Source: a virus
Reading direction: 5' to 3' (one strand)
Virus record (IMG/VR): IMGVR_UViG_3300033145_000668
Span: 31,175-95,174 of that record
Length of the DNA: 64,000 nucleotides
The translations under genes were made by a program, and so were the position numbers. This document shows, one piece after another, positions 2,569 through 64,000 of the stretch (position 1 is its first letter; each line of letters begins with the position of its first letter). Below the pieces are notes generated by a model. That model ran no database searches. It worked only from the letters and a program-made list of their open reading frames with translations, and was not told the origin of the DNA.

Positions 2569-2604
2569 TGATGACATACAAATTAAATTTAAATATAATT
2601 ATCA

Positions 2605-33428: not shown

Positions 33429-34249
33429 TATTGTAAAGCAACATTAATTTTATGTTTACTACCATCTAAAGTTAATAATGGAGAACCTTGTCTTGCAGGT
33501 TCCATAGATTTTATATGAGCATAAGAATTCCAATATTTTAAATAAGCTCCAGTTAATATAAAGTGTTTTGACTTTCTATCAATAGTTTTACTTCTTTTAT
33601 TTATTCCGTAACATTCTCGTACATGATGACTTAATTGATGTAAGTGTCCCATTGCATAAATTTCAACGTCGTCGATAATTTTTTCTAAATCTAATACACC
33701 TTTAATTTTAGTATGAGCCATTCTCGCTCCACTTGCACCATGAGTAGTATAAAGCGAATACGATTCTTTTCCTACTCTAAAAGAAATAGGTTTTGCAACG
33801 CCTAAATATTTACCTTTAATTTGTCTGCACATGTGTCTCATAATATTTACTCCATCATCTTTAAATACTCTCGCTTCGTGATTTCCAACATGTGCTCCAA
33901 GAAATAATCCTTCTTTAACAAACGGTTCATAAATAGCCATCCAATCTGACATTTGTTTATCTAAAATATCTTCTTGTTCATAAACACCAGAACCAACAGA
34001 CCCTCTAGTTGCGCTTTCAACACCGTCACCCATATGTAAAATATGTATTTTATTATTATAAGCCCATTCAAGATTATTCATTAATTTTTCTCTATTATGT
34101 TGAGCGTTTCCAATATGCTCATCACCAACCAGAAAAATTTGTAATTGGTCTAAATCAAATTTTTTGTAAAAAAGAGTTGGATTTTCTTCTTCATATCGTA
34201 AGTTTTTTTCTGTTTCTAATTTATTTCTTACATTATCTTTATAACTCAT
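33428..34249 (-). CDS. Calcineurin-like metallophosphoesterase
   Basis: GDEH, GD, GNHE, HG, GHLH motifs. Confidence 0.88.
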   Translation of the reverse strand: MSYKDNVRNKLETEKNLRYEEENPTLFYKKFDLDQLQIFLVGDEHIGNAQHNREKLMNNLEWAYNNKIHILHMGDGVESATRGSVGSGVYEQEDILDKQMSDWMAIYEPFVKEGLFLGAHVGNHEARVFKDDGVNIMRHMCRQIKGKYLGVAKPISFRVGKESYSLYTTHGASGARMAHTKIKGVLDLEKIIDDVEIYAMGHLHQLSHHVRECYGINKRSKTIDRKSKHFILTGAYLKYWNSYAHIKSMEPARQGSPLLTLDGSKHKINVALQ

Positions 34250-34312: not shown

Positions 34313-34651
34313 TCAATAATTATTATTTTTAAGATGTTCGTGAAGATAACCCATGCAATTAAACATCAATCCACAAATGGCTTCTTCGATTCCTTCTCTT
34401 GATTTTATTCCTCTATGCTCTTCCCACCAATCAAAAAAGTGTCTAAATCCAGATTTCATATATTCTTCTTTCGGCATTCCCTTTTGCCAATTATCCGAGC
34501 TTCTTATTGTCCCGTCCTTTTGAAATCTATTTTTGTGCATATATTCAGCAAATCGTTTTAGAACTATTGGACTCAGGAAACCCTCGAAGTCTAATTTATC
34601 TTCATCGGTGTCTCGAGTTGCTCCGCTGGCGAACTTTCTTACTTTTGTCAT
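34313..34651 (-). CDS. dATP/dGTP diphosphohydrolase-like (DUF5664-like) protein
   Basis: 'F.SGATRD', 'LSPIVLKRFAEYM', 'NWQKGMP', 'RH', 'FN'. Confidence 0.65.
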   Translation of the reverse strand: MTKVRKFASGATRDTDEDKLDFEGFLSPIVLKRFAEYMHKNRFQKDGTIRSSDNWQKGMPKEEYMKSGFRHFFDWWEEHRGIKSREGIEEAICGLMFNCMGYLHEHLKNNNY

Positions 34652-35280
34652 TGTTTGTGCCTAGGTCCTTCAGAGAACCAATCGAACATATCTCTTCGAA
34701 GTTTAGCCATTCGTCCATCTGGATGGGTAAATACTATTCCTTCAACAAAATGTTCTGTTTCGTTTTCTTCTGTTTTTCCGTGTATTCTTAAATTATATAA
34801 TGGCATTAATTCTCTAAACCATTCTCTTATAGATTCAAATGTTTTTGGATACTTACCCCAACATTTATACATAAGATGGTTTTGTCCATAAGTTTCAAAT
34901 GGTATCCATATATGTTCATCTAAGTTATAAGGATTACCATTAATTTTTGGGCCAATACACTCGCCAAAATGTTGGCCATCTCCTAAAAATTCAGTATAAC
35001 CTTTTGAATAAGAATTCATAATTCCTATAATTATATGTTGTTTACCTTTATTAAAAAACGGTATTCTTTCTGTTCTGTTCCACACAGCTGTGATTACTCC
35101 ATCTGTTATATTTATAGAAACATTAGTACCATGTAATTTTTCAACTGCCATTACCGACTCGTCTTCAAACACCCACTCCATATCTTCTGCTATTTCATCT
35201 GTAACTATGTAGTGTCCATCTATTTCTTTTCTCACAAATGGTGAATATAATTTTGGCATGTCTTTTATTTTATCTATCAT
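34648..35280 (-). CDS. ATP-dependent RNA ligase (Rnl2-like nucleotidyltransferase domain)
   Basis: Motif I 'EKLHGTN', 'FGECIG', motif IV 'EGIVF', motif V 'AKLR'. Confidence 0.75.
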   Translation of the reverse strand: MIDKIKDMPKLYSPFVRKEIDGHYIVTDEIAEDMEWVFEDESVMAVEKLHGTNVSINITDGVITAVWNRTERIPFFNKGKQHIIIGIMNSYSKGYTEFLGDGQHFGECIGPKINGNPYNLDEHIWIPFETYGQNHLMYKCWGKYPKTFESIREWFRELMPLYNLRIHGKTEENETEHFVEGIVFTHPDGRMAKLRRDMFDWFSEGPRHKQ

Positions 35281-41911: not shown

Positions 41912-42086
41912 AATTAATATAGAATTATTAGTTTTATAAATGTATTTATTGTGGATTATATATAATTTATTGTATTTTGATTGTGATTTTCGGGTGTTTG
42001 ATTGTCCTATATTTGTCATGAAAAATTTGCTTCTATTGTGTCCATTTTTCGAGATGCGATTTTGATTTGATTTATCCTTCATTTAT

Positions 42087-42421
42087 TCCAATTTATCCTT
42101 GATTTACCGAATCATGGTCTCAATTTATTATTTATCGCGGGCTTATACTTTTTTTTCTTAGTTTTAGATTTGTTTTTTAAATAAATTGGAATTAAAAAGA
42201 GTATAATACTAATAGAGCTCATATTAGCGCGAGATATCGCAATTCCTATTTATTATTTGAAATAAATTGGAGATAAATTGAACCCCCGGGTTACATGCTT
42301 AGTATATAAAGGCTTGCTTTTTTAATTCCAATTTATCTCCAATTTATCAAAACGATGGAAAGCTTTATAAATAGGCCACAGTTTCATTTATCGTTCATTT
42401 ATCGCCGAAAAATAAATTGGA
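42087..42421. repeat. Iteron-like ATAAATTGGA repeats in both orientations (candidate replication origin)
   Basis: Forward at 42181, 42262, 42412; reverse at 42087, 42327, 42338; extra partial copies; lies at the coding-strand switch. Confidence 0.7.
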
Positions 42422-42556
42422 ATAAAATTATTAATTTTAAAATAATCATCAATAATATAATTAATACTTTTATCATGGCCGTCATTTTCGTCTCTCAACT
42501 GTGGCCGCGATTTCGCGTAATTTTACCACATTTTGATTGGCCTTTATTTGTTATCG

Positions 42557-42777
42557 CGAATCAGTAAGAGAATATCAATAGAATTGGTAAACTTTATTGA
42601 TAATCTGCTACTGATTCGTATTAAATATAAAACCAGCAGGGATATGTTTACGTGTGCAAGTGGTTTCCCCCAGAAAGATTTTCCTATCCTTCTGTTGCTG
42701 GTTGAGTATGATTAGTGAATAGTACCGGGAACGCAATTAATAGTCGCACGCGCGTTAAACACATCAACGACGTTCCC
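42557..42777 (-). ncRNA. Structured RNA B, immediately downstream of a tRNA-like element
   Basis: Stems GGGAACG/CGUUCCC and AACCAGCA/UGCUGGUU, long terminal hairpin 42557-42618, linker shared with RNA A. Confidence 0.55.
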
Positions 42778-42847
42778 CGTAACGAATCGGATTTGAACCG
42801 ATGTATCGGGTATCTCCCGCGCACTTACCAGGCTGTGCTATCGCTAC
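42778..42847 (-). tRNA. tRNA-like element with shortened anticodon arm (no assignable anticodon)
   Basis: Acceptor GUAGCGA/UCGUUAC; D arm GCAC-AGCCUGGUAA-GUGC; CGGG-AGAUA-CCCG in place of the anticodon arm; T arm AUCGG-UUCAAAU-CCGAU; TTTAAATA box ~25 nt upstream. Confidence 0.75.
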
Positions 42848-42967
42848 CTATATTATACATAGGAAAAGTGAGTATTTAAATGCTTGCCCTCTCTACTAAT
42901 GGCCACTCTATTACGGAAATCTTTATAAGTGGCTTTGTCCTTATAATATTGATTTATGAAATCCCAA

Positions 42968-43065
42968 TTTTGGAATTTGGATTTTGGATTTTGGAATTTG
43001 GATTTTGGAATTTGGAATTTGGATTTTGGATTTTGGATTTTGGATTTTGGATTTTGGATTTTGCA
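42968..43065. repeat. Heptamer tandem array (WTTTGGA) x13 plus one degenerate unit
   Basis: Read directly from the sequence. Confidence 0.95.
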
Positions 43066-44257
43066 AATGTGTTTATTGAATTTAACATCGTCAGCGCTTA
43101 TATAGTATAATCATTGAGCGTATAGTATAATTTATAGGAAGAGCGATAGTATGCTGATGAGTGTTGTTCACTATGCATCCTCACAAAGAGATACAATTTT
43201 TTGCATCGTAAACATAGTTATTTGACGTTTTTTTATATAATATGATAATTATATCGATTGTTTTAAAATAATCTTTAAACAATTTAAAAATAATTTTTTC
43301 AATTTTTTTGGTTGTGAGGGTTTGAGAGGATTTTAACATAAAAATACATATAAATTTTGGTGAGGGTTTTGGACGATTTATACATATAAACACATATACC
43401 TATTGTTTACTTGGATATGTGATGTTCCAGTATACATGTTCGGTTCATCATATATGTTCCACTAAGTGACCACATCATAAGGATATTTCTATACTTACTC
43501 ATTTAGAGGTTATACTCCAAAGGAGAAAGGAAAACAATGTTTATAAACACCTGTATATTCTAACATACGCTTCCTATGGCCATAACATTTATAACTAACT
43601 ATGGTCTTATTCTTATTATGGAAACAAAAATATTTGAAGAAATGGAAGAAGAAATTTGGAAGTTGACAAAAAAATTAAATAAGTTATTATTTGATTTTGA
43701 AGACGAACCTAAACTTAGTTTAGAAGTTGTAGACTATTTAAATGAGGGAGGTAAATAAATGGATGAATATGAATTTGAGTATAGTGTTGAAGGTTTAGAT
43801 GAGCATATACAACTTTTGAAAGATTGTGTTAAGAATAAAGTTGATATACTTATTCACAACGAAGAAGAAGAGTGGTTTGTGTTGGGAGAACAAAAAGTTG
43901 TTATTTATAGTATGTTTGAAAGATATGGAGATGTGGATAGAGAAAAAATAACAATTGATGAGTTGATTGAAAAATGGGAAGAAGAAAAGAAAGAATTGGA
44001 AGAAGAAGAGAGATTGGAAAATATAAGAGAAGTGAGTGTAGATGAACATAAACAAATGCATTAATTAAATCACAATAGATTTTTTTTACTCGAATTCTCA
44101 AGTATATAAACCTTTTGGTATCCCTCTCCAATGATACTTTTTCTTTGTCATTCTATAATGAATACAAACATTTATAAACAAAAGGATGATAGTGTTTCTT
44201 TATAAAGATATGGAAAGATTTATAAATAAAAAACATGTCTGTTTGAGGACACATACC

Positions 44258-44277
44258 TTTATAAAGGACTATGGCCT
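44258..44277 (+). promoter_or_regulatory. Conserved promoter TTTATAAAGGACTATGGCCT (copy 1)
   Basis: Identical copy at 46136; variants at 43588, 44753, 45730, 46811. Confidence 0.7.
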
Positions 44278-44559
44278 TTTATTTTTAATTAAATATGGAG
44301 AATAAAATTTAAAATGAAACTAAATGACTTAATGAATGCGATTGCTGACTATAAGAGATATGTGGCAATGAACAGAAGACAAGTTGTTATATTTAAAAAA
44401 GCAATAGCTGATTTTGAATATAATGTTGACTTTCCTATGTTTGGTTTATTAGAAGAAGATATTTTGAATATGAAGAAGAAGTTAAATGCTTTTTTGGAAA
44501 AACCAGAAGATTTTTGTAGAGAATTTATTTTGGAAGACTTTGTTGATTAATTATTATTC

Positions 44560-44594
44560 AGAGAGTTGGAGAAATCTGACTCTCTATTTTTTTT
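44560..44594 (+). terminator. GAAA-tetraloop hairpin + T-tract (copy 1)
   Basis: AGAGAGTTGGA-GAAA-TCTGACTCTCT then T8, just after a stop codon. Confidence 0.7.
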
Positions 44595-44752
44595 CTTAAA
44601 TTATTTCCTTTAAAAAGCTTTTGGTATTACTCAAGAATGCTAACAAAAAGTTGTCATTATATAATGATGCTAAGTTAGAAAATAAATCAGTTGATGGTGA
44701 TTAGGGAAAAAGACTTTATAAATGTTTGCGAGGCCAATTGAGTATACAAAGC

Positions 44753-44772
44753 TTTATAAAGGCCATTGGCCT
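44753..44772 (+). promoter_or_regulatory. Conserved promoter variant TTTATAAAGGCCATTGGCCT
   Basis: Followed by the same 'TAATTAAATATGGAGAA' leader as copy 1. Confidence 0.7.
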
Positions 44773-45632
44773 TATATAATTAATTAAATATGGAGAACAA
44801 AATTTAATGGAAAAAACAACTTACGAAGGAAATGAGCTTGAAGTAGAGATGAACAGCGGTGCTTGGATTTATGATGGTGTTGAGCATGAAAAAGTTTTGA
44901 AGATGAATCCAGAATTGCATGCTGCAATATGCATTTTTGTAGAAGATTATGTGGCTAATTTCGAAGCGATTAAGAAGAAAGAGCGAGAAGAAGCTCGAGT
45001 GAAGCGAGTTGCTGAGCGAGCAGCTGAGATTGCAGAATTTAAGAAATCGTTTGAAGCCGAGCACGGAGATAAGTTTAAAGAAGTTGAGTTGAGTTATGCA
45101 AATCCAGAAGGAATTGGTTATAATGCCAAATTTGTGAAATTTGGAAATACTGGATTTCGGATAGAGTATAATGAGAATGTGTATGGCACTGGATATTATA
45201 GTTCGAAAACTAAGTTGTCTTGGGCTGTGCAAGATAGTGACTACAAAACTCGAAGATATGCAAAACTCGAAACTGCAGTGAATAAGATTGTTGAAAGAAT
45301 TGTCGAGCAAGAAGAAGAACGAGAGCAAAAAATTGTTGCGTCAAATGAGACCGAGCGAAAAGAAAATCTTATGAAAGAATTTGCTGAAAAGCTTGGACTT
45401 GTTTACAAGAAAGAGACAAAATATCATTCCGGGAATTACGGTCGGAGCGGATATGACACAACTCACTACCGAGCGATAAAAGGAAATGTGAGAGTAGTGC
45501 TTGAATGGGATTATTCGAACAAGTGTGTTAAATCGGGCACGTGCACGTTGACTAAGGAAGATGCATCGCAAACTTTAATTGCTGAGATGGTTCGGTTAGA
45601 CGAAAAGCTTAATTAATATTTTTTTATTATTC

Positions 45633-45667
45633 AGAGAGTCGGAGAAATCTGACTCTCTATTTTTTTT
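45633..45667 (+). terminator. GAAA-tetraloop hairpin + T-tract (copy 2)
   Basis: AGAGAGTCGGA-GAAA-TCTGACTCTCT then T8; near-identical to copy 1. Confidence 0.7.
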
Positions 45668-46135
45668 CTTGAAAATTGCCATTTATAAACTTATGTGTCC
45701 TTTAACAACATTGTCTTATGTCCATAAGATTTATAAAGAATCGTGTTCTTAAATTATTAATTAAAATGGAGAATTTAAAATGACTGAAATAAACGATACG
45801 AAGGAAAATTGGATTGTGAATTGCGAGGATGTTCCGGAGAGCTTAATTGGTTTAACATTAGATGAAGCTAGACAAGCAGTAATGGATAACGTTTGCATTT
45901 CCTTGGATGAAGGGGAGGAGGAATAAAATGTTAAACGATAACTCGGTTGTATTCTGTGCTGAATGTCCTATCGAAAACGGTGACCAAGTTTATTGCGATA
46001 AGTGTGCAAAAAAACAAATCGATAAGTTAGACAAATTTAATGACGAACTTTTATAAGAATAGATTTTTTTTTACTCTGTTTCGATAGTACTTAAACTTAT
46101 GTATTCTCTAACGAATGTGTCTAAAGGCCACAAGA

Positions 46136-46155
46136 TTTATAAAGGACTATGGCCT
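46136..46155 (+). promoter_or_regulatory. Conserved promoter TTTATAAAGGACTATGGCCT (copy 2)
   Basis: Exact match to 44258-44277. Confidence 0.7.
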
Positions 46156-47994
46156 TGGTATATTATAATAATCGCGAAAGTGTTATTATGGGTTGAGGAA
46201 GAGGTAGCTGACGGACTTCATAATGCAACTTGGAAATGCTGAGCCTCAACAATACGGCCTTTGAAAGACAGGGAAGAGGGAAAGACCCTCACTTTATAAT
46301 CAAAATGAAAAACAAAATTAAATTTGTTATTGCTATTGTGATTGTTGTTTCAATAATCGTTTTTAGTATTATGAATTCAGGATGTCCGAATGGCTATGTT
46401 ATGGCTGAGGATTATTCTTGTGTGATTGATACTTTTTGGAATAATTAAATAAAAGGAGGTATAAAGTGAAGAACTATAAAGATTTGAAAGTGTTGGAGAA
46501 ATACATACAGGAGAATGGATTTGAAGATTATTTTAAGGTCGGTGGAATAATTTATACACAACAAGAATATGATGAAGAGGGTAAGCAAGTTAGTTACGGG
46601 AATAAGAAAAACGAAACGGGGTTTATCGTTAATACAGAAAATAGGTATGAATTAGGAACTAAAGACGCAGAAATAGAAGAATTTGATGAGTGGTATTTGA
46701 GAAATGATATCAGTTATTTAGAATAAGTAGAAATTAGATTTTTTTTTATTCGAAAAAGCCGTTTATAAGTATTTGCATTGTCCATTGTCCTATGTCCGAA
46801 GACCATAACACTTATAAAGGCCTTTTGTCTTATTATATTATGGAAATAACAAATACTGAGAGAGAGGAGAAAGAAGTTTTAAAAGTGCTAAAGCACAAGT
46901 TAAAGCTTTTAGCTACTGCACCAAACTTAGACTATAAGATGGTGTTAGAAGTTAAGCAAAAAGTTTTATTTTGTGAAGAGAGCAAATTAATGATGGTAGA
47001 TGATAAATTCGGATATGGTTGGATAAGTTTTGAAGATATGGCTGATTTCGCAAGAAAAAGAGATTTTGAATTTATTCAGATTGTGGAGGTTGTACGAAAT
47101 GAATAATACTCTAAAATTAAATTTCAGTTATTTTTTAACTGAAACGGCGAGTGAGAAATCACTCGCTTCATAATCATAATGGAAAATCAAGAAATGGCAG
47201 AACAAGTAATCGGCGCTGAAATGCTGGACTCAATTAAAGATGATTTAGAGCGATTTGGATTAGATGAGGAGTTATTGGATTTAAAATGAAAACCTATTGC
47301 AGACAAAACAAAGTGCAGAAATCAATAAGTGATATAATAAAGCCGTTTATGAAAGATGGAGATAGAATCGCGGAGTTGAAGAATGCTGGCATCGATACTT
47401 ATACCCCTCTTATATACCGGATAAAACTAGGCGCTTATTTAATAGCACTCGGTATATCGCTATTCATCCCGTTTACTACAAGCGGGTTAATTATAATTGG
47501 AAGGAGGTTATTGAAATGAGTTATGAAGATTTGAAATGTCCAGCGTGTGGATGTGTGGGTAAGAATACTATCGACCCTTATATAGTATCAGAGCATCCGA
47601 ATGTGGAGGAGGATTGGGTAGTATGTCAGTGCGGTGAGTATATAAGAGCAGTAAGCGAGCTCGAGTAAGCGAGCTTGAGTAATGAGCTTTGTATATATGT
47701 AGCGACAGCGAGGGGCGCGGCAAGCATATATGTATAGGTGTAGACAACACATGTCGGAAGCGTATGATAAAGTAGCGTGTATAGCATTGCTACATAATAG
47801 GGCGCATGGTTTAAAAGCGACAGTGAAAAAAAAGTTGTTTCTACATACGAAAATTTTGCGCAACGTATTTTTGGGGAGGTTTTTTATATAATTAATAATT
47901 CTACGCACACCCGCTGCATACTTGTCGCATACCCACACCAGATTATATATAATCCTCAGTCAATACATTTATAAATTTAATAATTTTATTATTC

Positions 47995-48212
47995 ACAGGT
48001 TCATAACCCATAAGCTCCTAAGAGGCGAAAATATCTTTGCTTAGCGGCGAGGAGGAGCAATCTCTACAATCGTTATGAAATCCCTAATTAAGCGCTGATG
48101 CGTGGGTAACGATGCTGCGATGTCACATTCCAATAAATTTAGAGTCTGATGATATCGCAAGCAACTTTCCCGAACTCGACGTGACAGCTAGCACCGTCGG
48201 GTCGGGGTGCAT
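47995..48212 (+). ncRNA. Structured RNA C
   Basis: TATA at ~47968; stems UUCAUAAC/GUUAUGAA, GCUCCU/AGGAGC, UGCGAUGUCA/UGAUAUCGCA, CCCGA..CUCGACG/CGUCGGG..UCGGG. Confidence 0.55.
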
Positions 48213-48230
48213 GTTCAAAAAATAATAAAT

Positions 48231-48310
48231 AATAAAAAATGATAAAAAATGATAAAAAATGATAAAAAATGATAAAAAATGATAAAAAATGATAAAAAAT
48301 GATAATAAAA
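48231..48310. repeat. Tandem repeat (GATAAAAAAT) x6 plus degenerate flanks
   Basis: Read directly from the sequence. Confidence 0.95.
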
Positions 48311-48685
48311 ATAATAAATAAACTACCGTGGGATATCTTATACTCTATAGGAATTGTAATTATCTTATACATACTAATAACAAAATGATAAAAATGAAAA
48401 TGGAGGAAATAAGCAATGAAAATTAGTAGAAGTTTTAACAAGATGATTAAGTTATCAGAAAAGATTAGCAAAGCAAAAGAAGAAGCTAAAGGAATGATTG
48501 TAGATATTGGTGTAGAACGAGAAGAACTTGACACATTAGAAACACAAATCAAGTCAGTTATTAAATTATAATAAATAGTAACATTTATAAACCAGTAGTG
48601 TTTAGTATTATAGTCTTTAATGACGCGAAAGAGGACGGAGATGGAAAGCCGTTAATCAGATGAAGGAGGACTCGGCGGGCTATAG

Positions 48686-48755
48686 GGATGCATAGTGCAG
48701 TGCTAGCATTTCTGCGATGCCGCAGAAGACCCAGGTTAAATTCCTGGTGCATCTT
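48686..48755 (+). tRNA. Degenerate tRNA-like element with 6-nt anticodon loop
   Basis: Acceptor GGAUGCA/UGCAUCU; D GUGC/GCAU; UCUGC-GAUGCC-GCAGA; T CCAGG-UUAAAUU-CCUGG. Confidence 0.65.
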
Positions 48756-48760
48756 ACTTT

Positions 48761-48850
48761 CGAGAAGAATCTGGAAACAGATTAGAAGTAAAACGAGGCG
48801 TTAGTGCACGCCTATCCTCATTGTTGCAGGTTCGAATCCTGCCTCTCGCA
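48761..48850 (+). tRNA. tRNA-like element: perfect T arm, partial acceptor, non-canonical D and anticodon regions
   Basis: GCAGG-UUCGAAU-CCUGC; CGAGA/UCUCG; AAUCUG-GAAA-CAGAUU; AGGCGU/ACGCCU. Confidence 0.5.
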
Positions 48851-49463
48851 TAAGGCGTGTAGTTGGTGGCGTCGTAAAAAAAAGCACTACTTGATACCGA
48901 TAATTCGGTACTTGGGGATGGCAAAACTAACCTCTTATGAAAATAAAGCAGGAGAACACATCCCCAGCCCTTAAGGGCAATTATAATCAAAATGACAGAA
49001 TACAAATGCCCAAGTGAAATAGAATTAGAAGAAAAGATACATTTTCAAGAAACAATGAAGAGAAATAGAGAAATAGATAAAGATTTTTATATGTTTGAAG
49101 AAATTTCAAAAGGAATTATGAATTTATAATAAAATGAAAAACAAAAATAAAATTGTATGTGAATTAAATTGTTATTTAGATGGAGATAGTTTATGTATTA
49201 TAAAAAATAATTTTATTAATTTACAAGAAAGTGAAGCAGTTTTTATAAAACCCACAAAAAAACAATTAAGAGAAATAATTAAATTAAAAAGGAGAAAAAG
49301 ATGAAAATACAAAGAAAAATAATTGAAGATATTACTAAGATTGTTTTAAGACAATTAAATTTAGATGGGGTAATTGATGGTAATAAATATCAAGGAAAAG
49401 ATTTTGATAAATTAATTAACAAAATAATTTTACTATGAGAAATATAGGAGAAAAAACTTTAAA

Positions 49464-52400
49464 ATGAAAAAAGAAAATAAAATCGGATGTGGGAAAGGAT
49501 TAGAAGAATATGGGAATGAAATTGATTGTGGATATAAAGATATTAAAGGAATTTATTTATGCCCAGAATGTCAAAGTCAGCAGGAACTCAATTCTAAAAA
49601 GAACTGTGTAAAATGTAAACCTGTTGACACCTCAAAATCGCAGTTTAATTTGAAAGAGAAAAGGATATTAAATAATGGAGCATATGGAGAATTAGACATT
49701 GAAAAAGTATACATGGAAGAAGATATCAAAGAGTTTATTCGGCTGGAAGATGAATTAATTAATAATTTCAGATTTAAAATAGATTCAAATGGATGTGTCT
49801 GTAATTTAGATGAATTAAAAGAAGAAAGAGAAAAACTCTCGGGGTTTTCGTCTGATTCCTCGAACACACACCAAAATAAAAAAGGATTTGGTAGAAGTTA
49901 TGGTTATCCTATACAATCACCATCAAAAGTAAATCAGGAGGAGAAAAGATGATAATAGAAATATCAACAAAAGATAAACAAGATGAATATCTTTTTTCAG
50001 ATGATCAATACGAAAATATAAAGAAAGTAATTGAGGCACTTAGGGAAATTACATATTAACAAAAGAATGAAACAAAGAAAAGAAACAAGAATTGAAATAA
50101 TAGATATGGATGATGAAACTAAAAGAAAATTTGTTAGACGGAATTGTAAAATTGAAGAATCAATTCAAGATAATGGAAGAACATTAAAATTATTTATATC
50201 GTCAAAATTACCTATCACTAAATTAAATAAAATGGAGGAAAAATAAAATTAAATACGGGTTCGTCTTAGTCATAAATTAAAATGATACAAAACTCATGAT
50301 AACTGAAACAATGGAAAAAGAAAAGAAATGTATATTTTGTGAATGGGAAAAAGCAACACAAAAAGAAAGAGATGATTGCGAATGGTATAATTGTCCTAAA
50401 TGTAAAATTAAATGTGGGTTAAGTTCGTCTTAGTCATAAATTCCGTCGATAAAACTAAATATTACTAAAAACAATACATTTATATACTACTTATTCTTAT
50501 ACTTATTATAATGGAAACAATAAAAGCAAAATGTCAAAAATGTTCTTACGAATGGGAAACAAACTCTAAGATGATTATGGTTAGTTGTCCATCGTGTTGT
50601 GCAAAAGTAAAAATTAGAGAGATTAAAAAATGAATAAAGAAACAAGATTAATTATAGAAAATCAAAAAGAAATAATGGAATTTTTATTATATCCAAATTA
50701 TCCTGAAAGTTTGATTAAACAAAAGAATAAAATTATAGAATTACTAATTCCAAAAGAATCAGATAATGAACAAAAAATAAAAAAATCACTTACGTCAAAA
50801 GGGGAGAAACGGAATTAAAATGGTAAAATTAATAATAGAAGCTGCTGCAATATTGAACGAGGATAATAAAGAGTTTTTTTCGGAACTTATGAGTAAAGGA
50901 GTTGATGCAGTTGAACCAGAGATGAAAAAACAATTAAATAGGGGAAAAGAAGAATGGATGATACAAATTACTTAGTATTTTTATTGAATAATAGATTAAA
51001 TGAAAATTATAGTATTAGAGAGTTGAAAAATGAAATAAAAGAAAGATTAAAAGAAATAGGAGTTATGAACGAATATGAAGATATTGATGAAGAAAAGCTT
51101 TCGTCAAAGAACACGGAGGAGAATCAGAATGAAAATTAAATATAATAAAGAATTAAAAGCTAAAATGTGTGTTCCTGAAACACCATTAGAAGCAGTTGAG
51201 CAATTAGAAATATTTTTTGAATCAGATATATGGTATTCTAAAGAAAATGAATGGAAAACAAAAGAAGATATGATTAAATATTTAAGAGGATATTTTAATA
51301 TTTGTAAAAAAGCAATTAAAAAATGTTCCAAGAAGAACACAGGAGTGAAACAAGAATGAAAGATAGATATTTATGGGGTTCATTAATATTTGGACTTTTA
51401 ACAACGTGGACAGGAACATTAGTTTATAATTCTCATTGGGGAAAGTTAGGATTAATCCCATGGTTAATAATTGCTATTCTATATTGGATTGATATGTGTT
51501 CTAAAAAGAACATGGAGGAGAATAAATGACTAATTTAAAGTATCACGAAAGTTTATTAGTATTTGGTTCAATAGGTTCTACACTAACAGGAATTGTATTT
51601 TATTTTATAATGAGAATTAAAGGAATCTTTGGTTCATTAATTACTATTTTACTTTTGATATTTGTCTATGTTGGAGTTGAAGTTTATACTAATATGAAAA
51701 AGGATTTAATAAAATATGAGCTTTCACTTTTGAAAGGAAATAAGAACGATGGATAAAAAAGAGATTCAATCAGAAGCAAAAGATTATTGTGGAGATATAC
51801 TTCATTGGATAAATAAAGGAGATTATTCTTCAGCACAAAGAATGCTAACTTCTTTTAGAAAAGCAATAGGTATGTGGAAAAAGGAAGGTGCACAATAATG
51901 ACATTAAGAGAACAACTTTCAGATTTAGAACATAAGCAATGGGCTCACTGGACAGATTATTTATTAAATTTATCTACAACAGAATTTAGTGAAAATATTG
52001 AAAGATGGCATAGACAAATTAATACAGATTATAAAGACCTTTCAGAAAAAGAAAAAGATTCTGATAGAAGTTGGGCAGATAAAGTTTTAGAATTAACAAA
52101 AGTGAGTATAGGAGAGTTGATTGAGAAAGAGATTATACATTTTGAAAAACCAGAGACGGAAGTAAACAAGGCAATGGTGTTTTATTTAAGAGATTTATTG
52201 AGAAAATTAGATACGCTTTGTAGTCCTTTGACGACAGGAGAGAAAGAATAATGTGTTTATTTTATAATTGGGTATATAAAGACAAAGAATTAGTTTCAAC
52301 TTCTGATGATATATGTGAAACTGTCATTTATACAAAAAGATTTTGTAGAAAATGTGGAAAACTTCAAGAAGATTATGGTAAGTTTAAAGGGGTTCAAGAG

Positions 52401-56775: not shown

Positions 56776-57031
56776 GTCTTCTGAAAAATTTATTATTTTT
56801 TTATTTAATATTAAAAACAAAATGACAAAAATCGATTACGAAAATGTAGGAAAAGATGTAAAGGAATGTCTTTATAGTTTTAATGATAAGTTTTCTAAAT
56901 TGGAAAGAAAAAAAGATGAACTGGATAGTCAATTTTTAAAAAGAATTGTTAATAACAGAAAAAGATGTTTAAATAAATTAACAAACGACAAACATTTATA
57001 AAAGACAGGTTCCTTTATATTATATAATAAA

Positions 57032-58075
57032 ATGATAACTAAAATACTAAAAGAAGTAAATAGAGTAATGAAACCGCATGCTGTATATGCCGTTGGTGGA
57101 TGTGTGCGTGACCATTTATTAGGAATCGAGCCAAAAGATTACGATTTTTGTACTTCTGCTACTCCAGAACAAATTGAAAAATGTATTAAATCTAAATCTA
57201 TGAGAGCATATTTAACTGGAAAGAGATTTGGTACTATTGGGTGTAAAGTAAAAGTTGATGGTAATTACCACATGATTGAGATAACAACTTTTAGGAAAGA
57301 GCAGTATGCAAAAGGAGATAGAAAACCCGACGTTGAGTTTGTTACTTCGTTACATGAGGATTTAAGTAGAAGGGATTTTACTATTAATAGCATGTGTGCA
57401 AGATTGGTAAACGACAAGCTAAAAATAGTAGACCCATTCAACGGTCAGGAAGATTTGAAGAATGGAATAATTAGAGCAGTTGGTAATCCTAAAATAAGAT
57501 TCAAAGAGGACCCATTGAGAATTTTAAGATGTGTAAGGTTTGCTTGTAGATTTAATTATGAAATAGAAGAAAAAACAAGAAAGAAAATGGAAAGTGGAGC
57601 AATCCAAATTTTAAATATTAGTAAGGAACGGTGGGTTATAGAGTTGGATAAGATTTTACAATCTAATAATGTTAGAAAGGGATTAGAATTATTATGGGAT
57701 ACTAAATTGTTTATTTATATGATACCAGAATTGTCTTTACAGCGAGGGTATGAGCAAAACTCTCAATATCATAATTTTACATTAGATGAGCACACTATTA
57801 AAGTTGTAGAAGCGGTTAGAAAGGATACTGATGATTTGAATTTACTTTGGGCTGCGTTACTTCATGATTGTGGAAAGGTTTTTTGTAAAACAGAAAATAA
57901 AAAAGGTTATAATAATTATATATCCCATGAAAATATAAGTTCTGAAATTGTTTTAAAATATGTTAATTATTTAAAATGGAGTAATGAAAGAAAAAATAAA
58001 GTATATGATTTAGTTCTCAATCACTTAGATGATGATTGTGAACTTAGAAAATATGATAACTTAGGTAAAGTGTAA
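57032..58075 (+). CDS. cca: Class II CCA-adding enzyme (tRNA nucleotidyltransferase) with HD domain
   Basis: 'VGGCVRD.LLG..PKDYD', flexible loop 'RKEQY..GDRKP', 'RRDFTIN', 'EDPLRILR', 'LLHDCGK'. Confidence 0.9.
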   Translation: MITKILKEVNRVMKPHAVYAVGGCVRDHLLGIEPKDYDFCTSATPEQIEKCIKSKSMRAYLTGKRFGTIGCKVKVDGNYHMIEITTFRKEQYAKGDRKPDVEFVTSLHEDLSRRDFTINSMCARLVNDKLKIVDPFNGQEDLKNGIIRAVGNPKIRFKEDPLRILRCVRFACRFNYEIEEKTRKKMESGAIQILNISKERWVIELDKILQSNNVRKGLELLWDTKLFIYMIPELSLQRGYEQNSQYHNFTLDEHTIKVVEAVRKDTDDLNLLWAALLHDCGKVFCKTENKKGYNNYISHENISSEIVLKYVNYLKWSNERKNKVYDLVLNHLDDDCELRKYDNLGKV

Positions 58076-58128
58076 TATATATAATTTATTATAAATACAT
58101 TTAAATACTCATTATAATATATTATAAT

Positions 58129-58266
58129 ATGAAAATAACAAAAAAACTAGTGAAAATAGGAGATAGTATTGGTATCATTATTGATAAACCAATACTTGAA
58201 AAAATGAAATTGAAAGAAAAAGATTTAGTTGAAATAAATATTAAAATAGTTGAAAATGAAGAATAA
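58129..58266 (+). CDS. AbrB/MazE-like DNA-binding protein, not in the ORF track
   Basis: MKITKKLVKIGDSIGIIIDKPILEKMKLKEKDLVEINIK...; TTTAAATA box upstream. Confidence 0.75.
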   Translation: MKITKKLVKIGDSIGIIIDKPILEKMKLKEKDLVEINIKIVENEE

Positions 58267-58930
58267 AGGTTCTTGGAAGAAAGGTCATGTCCCTTGGAAT
58301 AAAGGTAAAAAGTATAAATTAGAAGAAATTCATAGTAAAGAAAAAGCTGAAGAAATAAGAATAAAAATGAGAGACTCCATGGTAGGTAAAAAGCACACAG
58401 AAGAAGCAAAAGAAAAAATGAAAAAAACTTATAAAGAAAAATATGAAACCGGATATGAAAATAATAGAAAAGGAAAAGAAACACCAGAATCTACTAAAAT
58501 AAAATTAAGTAAAGCAAATAAAGGTCGCAAACCTTGGATAACTGGCGGTCACCATACGGAAAAAACTAAAGAAAAAATAAGTAAATCTAAAATTGGAAAT
58601 AAACATACAGAAAAAGCAAAAATGAATATGAGAATATCAAGATGTAATTATATAAAAAAGGTTGGTGGACCTACGTTTGGCAAAAACGAAACTCAAATAC
58701 TAAATGAATTTGAATTATCTAATGGTATTAAGTTGATAAGGCAATATAGTATCGTAGGATATTTAATAGATGGATGTTGTAAAGAATTGAATTTAGTGGT
58801 TGAAGTTTATGAAAAGTTTCATGAAAATCAAAAAGAAAAAGATGAAAAAAGAAAACAAAAAATAATAAATAAATTAAATTGTGATTTTGTAATAATAGAA
58901 GATAATTTTGATAACGAGAGGACAAAGTGA
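58250..58930 (+). CDS. NUMOD3-repeat endonuclease (DUF559/Vsr-like catalytic domain)
   Basis: 'PWNKG', repeated 'HTE..K.K.', 'RQY..GYLIDG...VEVYE..H'. Confidence 0.75.
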   Translation: MKMKNKGSWKKGHVPWNKGKKYKLEEIHSKEKAEEIRIKMRDSMVGKKHTEEAKEKMKKTYKEKYETGYENNRKGKETPESTKIKLSKANKGRKPWITGGHHTEKTKEKISKSKIGNKHTEKAKMNMRISRCNYIKKVGGPTFGKNETQILNEFELSNGIKLIRQYSIVGYLIDGCCKELNLVVEVYEKFHENQKEKDEKRKQKIINKLNCDFVIIEDNFDNERTK

Positions 58931-59124
58931 CACCCAAAAAATGTTCAGAGTGTACAAGATTTATTCCAGAAGCAAGAATTAAACAATATAAAAACAGAAC
59001 AATATATACATGTTCAAAACCATGTTCAATTAAACGAGAATACAGCAGACCTAGTAGATATAAAAATAAAAAATGAAAAGGACAATGTTTATAAAGACCG
59101 TTTTCCTATATATTATATAACAAA

Positions 59125-60246
59125 ATGAAACAAGAATTAAAAAAAATATACAAAAGAAACACAAACGGAAGTGTAAATCAATGGCAAATATTTGTTGTTG
59201 ATAATAGTTATTACACGGAAGAAGGAATATTGGATGGTAAAATAACTACATCTAAATCTAAAATAATAGTTGGTAAAAACATAGGAAGAAGCAATGAGAC
59301 AACTGATTATGAGCAAGCTATTAAAGAAGCTGAAGCTAAACAGACGAAAAAATTGGATTCTGGATATTCTGAAGACCTAAATAAAATAGATACAGCAAAA
59401 ACATTTTTCGCTCCGATGTTAGCACATAAGTACGAAAAATATAAAGACAAAATTGAATTTCCATTATTAGTATCTCCGAAGATAGACGGAGCTAGAATGG
59501 TAATTCAAGAAGATGGTTTGTTCACTAGAAACGGAAAAGAATATGTTTCGTGCCCACACATTACTGAATTATTTAAACCACTTTTCGAAAAATATCCTAA
59601 TTGGGTAATTGATGGAGAAGTATATGCTCACGATGTTTCATTTGAGAAAGTTATGAGTTTAGTTAGAAAAAGTAAACCAACTGAGGAAGATATACAAGAA
59701 TCTGAAAAGATGATTAGTATTTATATTTTTGATGGTGTTGTTGACGACACTAATTTAGGATTTGAAAAAAGGTTTGAGTTGATTAGAAAAGAAATAAATA
59801 ATATTATCGGAGAAACAGAAAAAATAAAATATGTTGAAAATAATATAATAACATCAGATGCCGAAGTAGAAAAATATCATAGTGAATTTGTTGCTGATGG
59901 TTATGAAGGACTAATGATAAGAATACCAAATTCTATTTATGAAAACAAAAGAAGTAAGATGTTGTTAAAATACAAACATTTTTTGGATGAGGAATTCAAA
60001 ATTATAGATGTTGTTGAAGGATTGGGTAATCGTTCAGGAATGGCAGGAAATCTTGTGTTAGAGATGGAAGATGGAAAAACATTTTCTTCAGGAATAAAAG
60101 GCGGAGAAGATTATTATAAATATTTATTAGAAAATAAATCTAAGATTATTGGAAAATTTGCTACAATTAGGTATCAAAATTTATCCGATAAAGATAAGTT
60201 ACCGAGGTTTCCGGTTTGTGTAGATATTGGGAGGATTGATTTATGA
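59125..60246 (+). CDS. lig: ATP-dependent DNA ligase
   Basis: 'PMLA', motif I 'SPKIDGAR', 'DGE', 'FD', 'EGLM', 'LKYK', OB tail 'PRFP'. Confidence 0.92.
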   Translation: MKQELKKIYKRNTNGSVNQWQIFVVDNSYYTEEGILDGKITTSKSKIIVGKNIGRSNETTDYEQAIKEAEAKQTKKLDSGYSEDLNKIDTAKTFFAPMLAHKYEKYKDKIEFPLLVSPKIDGARMVIQEDGLFTRNGKEYVSCPHITELFKPLFEKYPNWVIDGEVYAHDVSFEKVMSLVRKSKPTEEDIQESEKMISIYIFDGVVDDTNLGFEKRFELIRKEINNIIGETEKIKYVENNIITSDAEVEKYHSEFVADGYEGLMIRIPNSIYENKRSKMLLKYKHFLDEEFKIIDVVEGLGNRSGMAGNLVLEMEDGKTFSSGIKGGEDYYKYLLENKSKIIGKFATIRYQNLSDKDKLPRFPVCVDIGRIDL

Positions 60247-60638
60247 CAAAATATAAATGGAAAGTAAATTATGTAAATGAAGGACAATTTGATATGTTAG
60301 ACTATCCAGAAAAATATATTGGAGAGCATGAAATTATTATAAAATTATCTTCTTCTATTGAATTTTTTAGTAAAGAAGTAAATGATTTTCTTAAAAAAAA
60401 TAAAATAAAAAATGTTTATGCACATAATACAATAAAAAATAGACAAGATTGGACTTATAATATGAAGAAAAGTGTTAATACTATTATGATAAGAGATTTA
60501 AAAAAAGATAGCGATGATAAAAAAGAAGTAGAAAAAATTATGAAGTTAATTCCAAAATTACATAAAGACCCTAAATATAGAGCAAAGAGAAAATTAATAG
60601 AAGAAATTAAAAATAGAAAAGGACAAGGAGTTATATAA
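60243..60638 (+). CDS. Hypothetical protein
   Basis: Coupled ORF in the operon. Confidence 0.5.
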   Translation: MTKYKWKVNYVNEGQFDMLDYPEKYIGEHEIIIKLSSSIEFFSKEVNDFLKKNKIKNVYAHNTIKNRQDWTYNMKKSVNTIMIRDLKKDSDDKKEVEKIMKLIPKLHKDPKYRAKRKLIEEIKNRKGQGVI

Positions 60639-61405
60639 TGATAAATACATTAGAAGATATGCAAAAATTTGAAAGATACTCAAATATAAATATATTGAAA
60701 GATTGCTTTTTTGCAATCAGGGTTGATGGTCGGTCATTCCATACAGAAGTTAAAAAAATGAAAATGGAAAGACCTTTTGATAAAAAATTAAGGAATGCTA
60801 TAAATAAGGCTATTAAATCTGTCATGAAAGATTTCGGATGTTTATTCGCATATACCGAAAGCGATGAAGTGACTTTTTTATTCTCTAAAAATTCAGAATT
60901 ATTTGATAGAAGATTGGAAAAATTAATATCATTGGTTGCTTCAAAAATGAGTGTTGAATTTTCAAAAAGTAAAATAGCAAAAGGAACATGTCCAACATTT
61001 GATGCAAGAATTCTAGAACTACCATCTAACGATTTAGTAATTAAATGTTTTCAATGGAGACAAATGGATTCTCATAGAAATGCAATTTCTACTCAATGTT
61101 TTTGGAGATTAGTTAAAGAAGGAGAATCAGAAAGAAAGGCAACAAAAATAATGGAAGGAATGAAAGATGCAGATAAAAATGAATTACTATTTAAAAGATT
61201 TAATTGTAATTATAATAATACTCCAGAATGGACAAGAAAAGGTACTATGTTTTACATAAAAGAATATAATAAGAAAGGTTATAATCCAATTAAAAAACAG
61301 AAAGAGAATGCAATAAGAAAAAAGATAGTTTGTGAAAACATCACGGTTCATTTTAGAAAAGATAATCTTAAAGATTGGTTAAATAAAGGAGTGAAAATCA
61401 TTTAA
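60638..61405 (+). CDS. thg1: tRNA(His) guanylyltransferase / Thg1-like protein
   Basis: 'IRVDGRSFH', 'PFD', 'YTESDE', 'FDAR', 'WRQMD..RN', 'KNELL', 'RKGT'. Confidence 0.92.
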   Translation: MINTLEDMQKFERYSNINILKDCFFAIRVDGRSFHTEVKKMKMERPFDKKLRNAINKAIKSVMKDFGCLFAYTESDEVTFLFSKNSELFDRRLEKLISLVASKMSVEFSKSKIAKGTCPTFDARILELPSNDLVIKCFQWRQMDSHRNAISTQCFWRLVKEGESERKATKIMEGMKDADKNELLFKRFNCNYNNTPEWTRKGTMFYIKEYNKKGYNPIKKQKENAIRKKIVCENITVHFRKDNLKDWLNKGVKII

Positions 61406-61406
61406 A

Positions 61407-61772
61407 ATGACAGAAGAGATAAAAATACCATATAAACAGTACATCGTTGTGCCTCGTAAGCCGAAAATGACAAAAGGTAAAATCGGAAGTCAAGTGGCCC
61501 ACGCAACATTCTTAGCACTTGAAAAACAAAAAGATAAAAAACTTATTAATGAATGGAAAGATAAAGGAATGTGTGTAATTGTACTTGAATGTGATAATGA
61601 ACTTCAGTTAAATAATTTAGCTAAATATTTAGAACAATGGAAAGTTCCTCATCATATGTATGTTGACGAGGGGCTGTATGGTTGTAAACCTTTTACGGCT
61701 ACAGCTTTGGCTACTGGTGTTTTGACTGAAGAATATTATTGGATGTTTGAAACAATGAAGTTGTTTAAATGA
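61407..61772 (+). CDS. pth2: Peptidyl-tRNA hydrolase Pth2
   Basis: 'KQYIVV', 'MTKGKIGSQVAHA', 'W...G...IVL', 'VDEG', 'TALA'. Confidence 0.88.
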   Translation: MTEEIKIPYKQYIVVPRKPKMTKGKIGSQVAHATFLALEKQKDKKLINEWKDKGMCVIVLECDNELQLNNLAKYLEQWKVPHHMYVDEGLYGCKPFTATALATGVLTEEYYWMFETMKLFK

Positions 61773-61816
61773 AAACATTTATAAACCCTAAATTATTAAA
61801 TATAATATAAAAGAAA

Positions 61817-62242
61817 ATGGTGAAAGTAGATATAAAATTAAAAGAGACAAGAATAAAAAACAAAGAGATACTGAAAAGTATTGATGTGCTTGATAAAACT
61901 TATTGTAAAAATTTAAAGACAATTGCAAAATTGCAAGCCGAAAATGTTTTAGCAAAATCAAAACAGAGAAGATTGAGAACTAATATTATAACAATGAGAA
62001 ATATAAAAATAGATAGAAGATTAAGCACTAAAGAAAAACTTAAAATAATAAAAGACAGAGGAAATAAATGTAAAGAGTGTTCAGCCACAACAAGATTAAC
62101 TATTCATCATAAAAAGAGTTTGTCGTTAGGTGGAACTAATCGTGATAATAATTTAGAAGTACTGTGTATAGATTGTCACAGAAAACATCACCCAATAAAT
62201 GAAACTGCAATATTAAATGGAGAGATACCGAAAGTAAAATGA
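61817..62242 (+). CDS. HNH endonuclease
   Basis: 'CKEC', 'TIHHK...GGTN..NNL.VLCIDCH'. Confidence 0.85.
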   Translation: MVKVDIKLKETRIKNKEILKSIDVLDKTYCKNLKTIAKLQAENVLAKSKQRRLRTNIITMRNIKIDRRLSTKEKLKIIKDRGNKCKECSATTRLTIHHKKSLSLGGTNRDNNLEVLCIDCHRKHHPINETAILNGEIPKVK

Positions 62243-62457
62243 CATTAATTAAATGTAAAAACTGTAATAGAGAACATCCGGAGTCAACTTCTAACTGTTG
62301 TTGGATAAGTTGTGAATGCGGAAAAACAATTTGCGGTCAGTGCGATTATGCTGGAGAAAATTGGACCGACGTTTCCAGCGGTGATGATGAAGACCAGTAT
62401 TGGTGCTGTAAAGGATGTCCAGATTGTGGATTAAGTGGTTGTGCGATGTGTATTTAA
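62239..62457 (+). CDS. Cys-rich small protein
   Basis: Multiple CxxC/CC motifs in 72 aa. Confidence 0.55.
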   Translation: MTLIKCKNCNREHPESTSNCCWISCECGKTICGQCDYAGENWTDVSSGDDEDQYWCCKGCPDCGLSGCAMCI

Positions 62458-62485
62458 AATGATAGTAAATGGAGAAGTATAAAAG

Positions 62486-63238
62486 ATGAGTAAATATAAA
62501 TTAAATAAAAAATGTATTATATGCAATAAGAATATTTTAGATAAAAATAAAACTGGGTTTTGTAATAAACATAGAGATAGAACAGGAAAGAATAATCCAT
62601 TTTATGGTAAAAAGCATACAATAGAATATAAAGAAAAAGCAAGAATTAGAAGTTCTATATCGACTAAAAAACTTTGGCAAGACCCAGAATATAGAAATAA
62701 AGTTATTAAAGGAACTTCTAAACCTAGACGAGAAAAATTTAAACAGGAGCAAAGTGAAAGAATAACACAGTGGTATATAGATAATCCAGAACAAAGAGAA
62801 ATTAGAAGAGAAAAAATGAAAGAATCTTGGAAGAATGGAAAGATTACTCCAAATAAACGTGTTATTTCAAATAAAAGTAAAAAAGAAAAAAAATTATTTT
62901 TGAAAATAAAAAGATTATTTATCAACGCTGATGATAAATGTACTATACACTCCGAAACTAATTGGTTTCTTCCGGATATTTATATTGAAGATATAAACCT
63001 AATTATAGAATTTAAAGGAAATTATTGGCACGCTAATCCTAAATATTATAATGAAGACGATATTGTTCATCACAATATTATAGCTAAAGATATTTGGGAA
63101 AAAGATAATTTAAGAGAAAAAGAATTAGAAAAATTAGGTTATGAAGTATTTGTAGTTTGGGAAGATGATTATGATAATGATATAAATTATATTATTAAGA
63201 ATATAGATAGTTATAATTGGGAGAGTTGTTCAATATGA
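62486..63238 (+). CDS. NUMOD3 + Vsr/DUF559-like homing endonuclease
   Basis: 'NPFYGKKHT', 'PDIY...IIEFKGNYWH', 'LGYEVFVVWE'. Confidence 0.8.
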   Translation: MSKYKLNKKCIICNKNILDKNKTGFCNKHRDRTGKNNPFYGKKHTIEYKEKARIRSSISTKKLWQDPEYRNKVIKGTSKPRREKFKQEQSERITQWYIDNPEQREIRREKMKESWKNGKITPNKRVISNKSKKEKKLFLKIKRLFINADDKCTIHSETNWFLPDIYIEDINLIIEFKGNYWHANPKYYNEDDIVHHNIIAKDIWEKDNLREKELEKLGYEVFVVWEDDYDNDINYIIKNIDSYNWESCSI

Positions 63239-64000
63239 CAATACAAAAAATATATTATAATAAAAAATTACAAAAAGTTCCAATTAAAAGTTGGGTAACA
63301 GATATAGAATCAAGTACAATAGAACAAGCAAAAAATTTATCTCAACTTTCATTTATTTTTAAACATATTGCATTAATGCCTGATGCTCATTGTGGTTATG
63401 GACCACCAATCGGGTCTGTTTTTGCAACAAAAGATGTTGTAATTCCATATGCGGTGGGAAGCGATATCGGGTGTGGAATGATTGCAGTAAGGACTTCGAT
63501 TAAGACAATGGAGTTTAAAACAGAAGAATTAAAAAGCATCATAGGAGAAGTAAGAAAAGAAATTCCAACTGGGTTTAAAAAACACAGTACGTGTCAAGGT
63601 GAAATGCCACAACCGTGTATACTATTAACTTCAAATAAATCTATAGTAATGCAAGAATGGAAAAATGCTCAAATTTCGTTAGGCACGTTGGGTTCGGGCA
63701 ATCATTTTTTGGAATTTCAAAAAGGAGATGATGGTTTTGTTTGGATAATGATTCATTCGGGAAGTCGAAATCTAGGTCAAAAAGTTTGTAAACATTATCA
63801 TGAGTTAGCTAAAGAATTAAATAAAAAGTGGTGCATTACTATTCCAGATGATTGGAGGTTAAATTATTTTCCAATAGATTCAGATGAGGGAAAAATGTAT
63901 TTAGCAGAAATGAATTACTGTTTGGAATTTGCTCAAGCTAATAGAGATGCTATGATGAACAAATGCAAAGAAGTATTCATTAAAATAATAGGAGAAGGAA
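63235..64000 (+). CDS. rtcB: RNA-splicing/repair ligase RtcB, 3'-truncated by the window edge, not in the ORF track
   Basis: Manual translation: 'LMPDAHCGYGPPIG', 'VGSDIGCGM', 'LGTLGSGNHFLE', 'HSGSRNLG'. Confidence 0.92.
   Translation, partial: MTIQKIYYNKKLQKVPIKSWVTDIESSTIEQAKNLSQLSFIFKHIALMPDAHCGYGPPIGSVFATKDVVIPYAVGSDIGCGMIAVRTSIKTMEFKTEELKSIIGEVRKEIPTGFKKHSTCQGEMPQPCILLTSNKSIVMQEWKNAQISLGTLGSGNHFLEFQKGDDGFVWIMIHSGSRNLGQKVCKHYHELAKELNKKWCITIPDDWRLNYFPIDSDEGKMYLAEMNYCLEFAQANRDAMMNKCKEVFIKIIGEG

Follow-up and report, generated by a model that had tools for sequence, protein, structure and literature searches.

Genes for tRNA-directed enzymes at the contig end

The stretch analysed here, called the window, is the final 64 kb of a 95,174-bp IMG/VR virus contig (IMGVR_UViG_3300033145_000668) with a rated completeness of ~68%. 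Coordinates are window positions unless marked "contig". The uncultured virus has a GC content of ~28% and an estimated genome size of ~140 kb, i.e. it is not jumbo. From 57032 through the contig end all long open reading frames (ORFs) are on the + strand, and four of them code for enzymes that act on tRNA:

57032–58075, + strand: class II CCA-adding enzyme with a C-terminal HD phosphohydrolase domain, 347 amino acids (aa) (Pfam; phrog_2244)
60638–61405, + strand: Thg1-like protein (TLP type), 3'-5' nucleotidyl transferase, 255 aa (Pfam)
61407–61772, + strand: Pth2-type peptidyl-tRNA hydrolase (Pfam PTH2 PF01981, 1e-20)
63235–63999, + strand: RtcB RNA ligase, truncated by the end of the contig after its N-terminal ~255 aa (Pfam)

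Families were assigned with Pfam and PHROGs, which were concordant for all four proteins, and motifs were taken from translations and alignments. An original prediction, made from the letters of the DNA, had placed these four enzymes in 57032–64000, and both the Pfam matches and the intact catalytic motifs confirm it. By a rough estimate, the chance of finding four tRNA-directed enzymes within 7 kb of a 95-kb contig is ~0.002, and the gene set is genuine and non-random. The loci compared with the virus are L023, L025, L026, L030, L031, L049, L050, L125 and L126; G001 is a small archaeal metagenome-assembled genome (MAG).

The CCA-adding enzyme matches the PolyA_pol head domain (PF01743, 1.5e-35), the PolyA_pol_RNAbd domain (PF12627, 2.7e-15) and HD. 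Motifs A (GGCVRD, DYD), B (RRDF) and D (EDPLR, nucleotide-selecting) are intact, as are the HD ligands, and all four sequences named are invariant among 28 relatives. The closest solved structure is a bacterial CCA-adding enzyme (6ibp, 4e-42), with poly(A) polymerases scoring little below CCA-adding enzymes among the solved relatives; judged by the best of these, the viral protein is predicted to be a CCA-adding enzyme. It had been argued that this enzyme must be of bacterial type, since archaea use class I CCA enzymes, but this is too simple, as class II enzymes are reported from a Pacearchaeota (DPANN) clade (2026 preprint) and the sole named close relative of the viral protein is from a Candidatus Pacearchaeota MAG (62% identity). 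In a quick tree, the Pacearchaeota-labelled protein fell inside a clade full of viral contigs and grouped with this virus (Shimodaira–Hasegawa-like approximate likelihood ratio test (SH-aLRT) support, 83). On these comparisons, the class II enzyme is not clearly a foreign one for the host. Viruses of this clade may have been a route of class II CCA enzymes into Pacearchaeota, which bears on the origin of those enzymes.

The Thg1-like protein matches both Thg1 (PF04446, 4e-32) and Thg1C (PF14413, 2e-21), and its metal-binding carboxylates, D30 and D76-E77, are invariant in 30 sequences. The eukaryotic HINNLYN motif, associated with recognition of the His anticodon, is absent; the aligned segment reads HRNAIST, and the protein was therefore filed as a Thg1-like protein (TLP). 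In these respects it resembles the bacterial and archaeal Thg1-like proteins, which have both domains and the catalytic carboxylates without HINNLYN (Rao et al. 2011, NAR; PMC3061083), but unlike those it is a viral protein, and its gene shares an operon with Pth2. In a sequence comparison with solved structures, eukaryotic Thg1 and archaeal TLP were about equally far from it. Relatives in metagenomes reach 74–89% identity and homologues occur in 161 records of cultured phages, while a single-protein scan of IMG/VR with Thg1 gave no match. The gene is 75–84% identical in L026 and L030, although these loci have no other detectable protein in common with the virus within 20 kb. DNA similarity to relatives ends at the borders of the Thg1 gene, a pattern that suggests either gene-sized exchange or unusually strong constraint.

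The motifs GK..SQ..HA and DEG of Pth2 are conserved in the alignment, and its closest solved relatives are archaeal Pth2 proteins (1wn2 at 1e-10). Only 7 records of cultured phages hold this type of Pth2. The RtcB match (PF01139, 3.6e-61) covers positions 1–264 of the 426 of the profile hidden Markov model, with the contig ending there, ahead of the C-terminal histidine that becomes guanylylated in RtcB. The Cys and two His ligands of RtcB, found in DIGCG, GNHF and HSGSR, align with the ligand positions of Pyrococcus horikoshii RtcB, and L031 codes for a full-length relative of 397 aa (60% identity). A DNA search of cultured phages matched only a 147-nt patch of the RtcB gene.

Between and around the four genes lie a DNA ligase gene, two short orphan ORFs and three genes for free-standing homing endonucleases, which the original prediction had not listed, together with two copies of a promoter-like box:

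56992–57002, + strand: promoter-like box ACATTTATAAA, 29 nt ahead of the CCA start codon
58250–58930, + strand: free-standing homing endonuclease (NUMOD3 plus Vsr/DUF559-like; Pfam)
59125–60246, + strand: ATP-dependent DNA ligase (Pfam; phrog_114 at 5e-80)
60243–60638, + strand: orphan 131-aa ORF (orf131), translationally coupled between the ligase and Thg1
61775–61785, + strand: promoter-like box ACATTTATAAA, ahead of the HNH gene
61817–62242, + strand: HNH endonuclease (Pfam)
62239–62457, + strand: Cys-rich 72-aa ORF without a Pfam family match
62486–63238, + strand: second NUMOD3/Vsr-like homing endonuclease (Pfam)

The stop of the DNA ligase gene overlaps the next start codon, and since the stops and starts of DNA ligase, orf131, Thg1 and Pth2 all overlap or abut behind one promoter-like box, these genes form one operon, of which the ligase gene is the first. 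No Pfam or PHROG match, no relative in the related loci and no usable Atlas match was found for orf131. The box recurs in 54 matches at ≤1 mismatch, against 29 expected; its exact copies lie between genes, 9 of 10 of them pointing the same way as the genes around them. It sits 21–31 nt 5' of the start codons of first genes, with GGAG-type ribosome sites ahead of internal genes, and a near-copy precedes the DNA ligase gene. A TATA-like box so close to ATG, which would leave first genes near-leaderless, fits archaeal transcription and offers moderate evidence for an archaeal host.

Free-standing homing endonucleases are numerous in the contig, with at least 4 of the NUMOD3/Vsr-like type and 2 HNH. 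Besides the three listed above, their sites are contig 729–1244, 5686–6357 and 8125–8976. Three alternate with the tRNA enzymes and one lies inside a tRNA array; L031 is interleaved in the same manner, and paralogues of the 58250–58930 endonuclease elsewhere in the contig match the same stretch of L031.

The RNA ligase and the metallophosphoesterase

Two further, distant genes had been counted with the four enzymes, one as a distant Rnl2-like ligase and the other as a phosphoesterase:

34648–35280, − strand: ATP-dependent RNA ligase (Rnl), adenylyltransferase domain only, 210 aa (PF09414; phrog_14301, phrog_548)
33428–34249, − strand: calcineurin-type metallophosphoesterase, 273 aa (motifs; phrog_7339)

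The RNA ligase is narrowly above the PF09414 cut-off (29.6 bits against 27). It has the nucleotidyltransferase motifs I, III, IV and V (KLHGTN, FGE, EGIVF and KLRR), which bears out the first call as a ligase; the protein ends soon past motif V and has no Rnl2 C-terminal domain. A PDB sequence search with Rnl found no solved relative. A further copy of the promoter-like box lies ahead of this − strand gene. In L025, a 61%-identical copy of Rnl is followed, ~900 bp downstream, by a Thg1 of 54% identity, and this neighbourhood supports a functional tie of the ligase to the tRNA enzymes. A 112-aa ORF at 34313–34651 (− strand), co-transcribed with the RNA ligase, shows a weak resemblance, sub-threshold at 25 bits, to the N-terminal domain of dATP/dGTP diphosphohydrolase.

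The second protein is a real metallophosphoesterase, with 39 of 60 homologues matching PF00149. The PHROG label of its family is DNA repair exonuclease, and a PDB sequence search gave nothing useful. An AlphaFold (AF2) model built from 60 homologues (predicted local distance difference test, pLDDT, 95.9) was compared by Foldseek, and its nearest folds were PolD DP1, Mre11 and LpxH. Going by this model, the protein is probably a DNA nuclease of the replication block and lies outside the set. A role as an RNA end-healing enzyme was considered as well and rejected as unsupported, the fold not being nearest to the lambda-phosphatase/Pnkp type. Several homologues are longer, at ~565–600 aa, because an insertion of ~250 aa interrupts the matching region, and possibly these are intein-containing versions.

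Of the end-healing and gap-filling partners known from the phage RNA-repair toolkit, polynucleotide kinase (Pnkp, PF13671), RlaP (PF10127) and RtcA (PF01137) were not found in the 95-kb, ~68% complete contig, and neither were archease and splicing endonuclease.

Related loci and the probable host

Parts of the gene set recur in other loci. L031 contains Thg1, a 179-aa ORF, the full-length RtcB, an HNH gene, CCA and a Vsr-like endonuclease, so that the Thg1–RtcB–CCA trio is found there, just as the Rnl–Thg1 pair is found in L025. The L031 CCA enzyme is identical to a protein of a 92-kb contig, and the same size is recorded for the contig of the 74%-identical Thg1. At least 558 IMG/VR contigs have a class II CCA gene; among the best 80 of these, Thg1 lies within 10 kb of it in 27, many of them near-duplicates, RtcB in 7, Pth2 in 2 and an array of at least 3 tRNAs in 9. 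Many relatives of CCA and Pth2 are on contigs of the same size, some of merely 2–5 kb, which implies that the two genes often adjoin each other, as L050 and L125 confirm; in L050, L125 and L126, Pth2 has CCA or a tRNA array as its neighbour.

These comparisons bear on whether the enzymes form a functional set at all, or were captured separately from cells and gathered, with no coordinated function, in an accessory region rich in homing endonucleases. Gene order and membership do vary, as L031 has neither Pth2 nor the ligase, and Thg1 is all that L026 and L030 have in common with the virus (84% identical in L026, where an 11-tRNA array lies 5 kb downstream). Three homing endonuclease genes alternate with those of the enzymes, and an unrelated DNA ligase occupies the same operon. 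Against this, all four enzymes act on tRNA ends, their pairwise linkages recur across many unrelated viral contigs, and coding frames and active sites are intact. We therefore regard a loose collection of this kind as very improbable.

L025 is part of G001, a 0.7-Mb MAG labelled "uncultured archaeon". Searches found no Thg1 in 60 relatives of G001, and class II CCA in 2 of 301 genomes of its class. Pth2 turned up in 29 of 31 genomes, namely G001 itself and 30 relatives, at only 27–40% identity. Additional Pfam scans of the replication-block ORFs returned no marker that settles the domain of the host. Taken from sequence, an archaeal host is plausible but indirect, and within the archaea a DPANN host is likely.

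Viral tRNAs and the role of the enzymes

The contig opens within a truncated tRNA gene, followed by 15 complete tRNA genes at contig 58–1825, and the array as a whole occupies contig 1–1825. None of its tRNA genes encodes CCA, and its anticodons fit the dominant viral codons (AGA 76%, AAA 85%, CAA 86%, UUA 70% and AUA 45%). An HNH gene is inside the array, and a gene for a TROVE-type protein (DUF2828 and DUF7788) then follows at contig 2005–3537. The original prediction had linked the enzymes to anticodon-less tRNA mimics, as a possible counter-defence, and had named in advance a canonical tRNA cluster elsewhere in the genome as the finding that would count against this; such a cluster, of 15 complete genes and 1 truncated, lies at the other contig end. 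Because the viral tRNAs lack an encoded CCA, ordinary maturation is enough to account for the CCA enzyme, and perhaps for the other enzymes too.

The tRNA-His gene of the array (contig 465–536) encodes G-1 and U73, and its acceptor stem contains two U·U mismatches, whereas other viral tRNA-His genes mostly encode G-1:C73. Its anticodon stem contains three G·U pairs, and its Rfam score is the lowest of the array (47.8 bits). A viral tRNA-His in L049 (3881–3954) has T at -1, A73 and an encoded CCA, i.e. it is without the usual encoded G-1, and the same contig also carries a related CCA enzyme.

We consider it fairly probable that the genes make up a module for tRNA supply and maintenance in a large, AT-rich tailed virus whose host is probably a DPANN archaeon. 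In this reading, the virus would supply its own tRNAs for A-ending codons, and its class II CCA enzyme would complete the 3' ends of these CCA-less tRNAs, after its HD domain had, where needed, cleared 2',3'-cyclic or 3'-phosphate ends. The Thg1-like enzyme would rebuild or extend 5' ends, be it the G-1 of tRNA-His or those of 5'-truncated tRNAs, RtcB and the small ATP-dependent Rnl would reseal broken tRNAs, and Pth2 would release tRNAs from dropped-off peptidyl-tRNA. To mend nuclease damage, the enzymes would apply this chemistry to these same molecules. What the sequence establishes is the identity of the genes, their intact active-site motifs, the arrangement of the operon, the array of CCA-less tRNAs, its fit to the codons and the return of the linkage in other viruses; from these we infer both the substrates of the enzymes and, as their main job, maturation and upkeep of the tRNA pool during infection.

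Several points weigh against this interpretation. ARAGORN, run with its intron search, returned no intron-bearing tRNA needing RtcB. A simple G-1-addition role of the TLP is not obvious because the viral tRNA-His already encodes G-1 and has U73; on the same grounds, the idea of the TLP as a plain G-1 adder for this tRNA found no support, position 73 being U and not C. The contig being ~68% complete, the adjacency of the enzyme genes to the tRNA array is uncertain. RtcB, Pth2 and a CCA enzyme already belong to the equipment of an archaeal host, and their duplication needs a reason beyond simple maturation. Finally, the activities of the enzymes are predictions from sequence.

A rival reading, that of the original prediction, is dedicated counter-defence, in which the enzymes mainly reverse the damage done by tRNA-cleaving immune nucleases of the host, such as anticodon nucleases, acceptor-end toxins and HEPN or VapC-type RNases. 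RtcB and Rnl would reseal cuts, the HD-CCA enzyme and the TLP would restore trimmed ends and Pth2 would clear stalled peptidyl-tRNA. Two ligation chemistries, restoration of both 3' and 5' ends and Pth2 together exceed the needs of maturation, and an HD domain on the CCA enzyme points the same way, as does a Thg1 gene that is common, gene-bounded and unusually conserved (74–89%) with otherwise dissimilar viruses. The absence of Thg1 from the relatives of G001 and the rarity of class II CCA in its class suggest that the virus may add activities that the cell lacks, but the host assignment behind this argument comes from one binned contig. Moreover, the host nuclease is a postulated one, the contig contains no Pnkp, RlaP or RtcA for the Rnl route, and the canonical tRNA array is a simpler set of substrates. 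A counter-defence role is plausible, and as the main purpose of the module we hold it to be rather unlikely. The same gene set has been read as counter-defence in jumbo phages, whose tRNAs, RtcB, Rnl1/2, TROVE with a tRNA-like partner, RlaP, CCA, Thg1 and PTH2 were explained as a means of repairing RNA during conflicts (Iyer, Anantharaman, Krishnan, Burroughs, Aravind 2021, Viruses 13:63, section 3.4.9; PMC7824862), and the repair logic of the original prediction agrees with this published reasoning for large phages.

Like the jumbo-phage toolkit, the present virus has its own tRNAs, RtcB, an ATP-dependent Rnl, CCA, Thg1, PTH2 and a TROVE/Ro60-type protein; unlike it, the genome is of an estimated ~140 kb, the probable host is an archaeon, neither RlaP nor Pnkp turned up in the contig and Rnl is a 210-aa catalytic domain only (PMC7824862). 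For the haloarchaeal tailed virus HGTV-1, the portion of the report available to us describes numerous tRNAs along with a CCA-adding enzyme, RtcB and ligases of the Rnl2 family (Liu et al. 2021, PLoS Biol; PMC8651126), and on that description both are archaeal tailed viruses with tRNAs, CCA, RtcB and an Rnl ligase, the archaeal host being probable in our case. The HGTV-1 set, as given there, includes LysRS and is without Thg1 or Pth2, and the virus described here differs further in being AT-rich and in probably infecting DPANN archaea, not halophiles.

Our results reveal no new mechanism; this kind of toolkit is already known from jumbo phages and, partly, from HGTV-1. What they do is extend the phage-style toolkit for tRNA maintenance and repair to a virus that probably infects DPANN archaea, a group whose viruses are, to our knowledge, barely characterised. 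Thg1 and Pth2 are added to the tRNA set reported for archaeal viruses, as far as the available portion of the HGTV-1 report allows the comparison. The 347-aa HD-CCA, the 255-aa TLP and the 210-aa Rnl are compact enzymes for biochemistry.

Two tRNA look-alikes were found in the window:

48686–48755, + strand: tRNA-shaped RNA with a 6-nt "anticodon" loop (Rfam tRNA, 46.8 bits), a possible substrate or partner of the enzymes
42778–42847, − strand: second tRNA-shaped RNA, with a 5-nt loop (Rfam tRNA, 47.8 bits)

In bacteria and phages, Ro60 occurs together with Y RNAs that have tRNA-like domains, and the CCA-adding enzyme is reported to recognise them, YrlA included (Chen et al. 2014, RNA; PMC4201824). 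As in the bacterial Ro60 (Rsr)/YrlA system linked to rtcBA (PMC4201824), a TROVE-type protein, RtcB and non-decoding tRNA-shaped RNAs occur here in one genome, and by this analogy the two look-alikes may be Y-RNA-type partners. Unlike that system, the sole YrlA match, at 48801–48893 downstream of the 48686–48755 RNA, is a weak one, at 23.6 bits where the gathering score is 69, and no match lies beside the TROVE gene in this contig or in L023. A broader proposal would have the gene set equip a DPANN host lineage with activities missing from it, namely 5' repair of the Thg1 type and a class II CCA enzyme linked to an HD domain, act as a Ro60/Y-RNA-type particle and have served as the viral route of CCA enzymes into Pacearchaeota. 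In such a particle, the TROVE/Ro60-like protein and the tRNA look-alikes may hand damaged tRNAs to RtcB, the TLP and the CCA enzyme. We find this combination quite unlikely, and tRNA supply and maintenance remains our preferred interpretation.

Both look-alikes fall within 42000–49500, where ~7 kb hold hardly any long ORFs and the GC content is slightly raised (0.30–0.34). About a dozen promoter-like ACATTTATAAA boxes are found in this region, e.g. at 44168, 44715 (− strand), 47965 and 48581, and by its sequence it looks like a small-RNA gene cluster.

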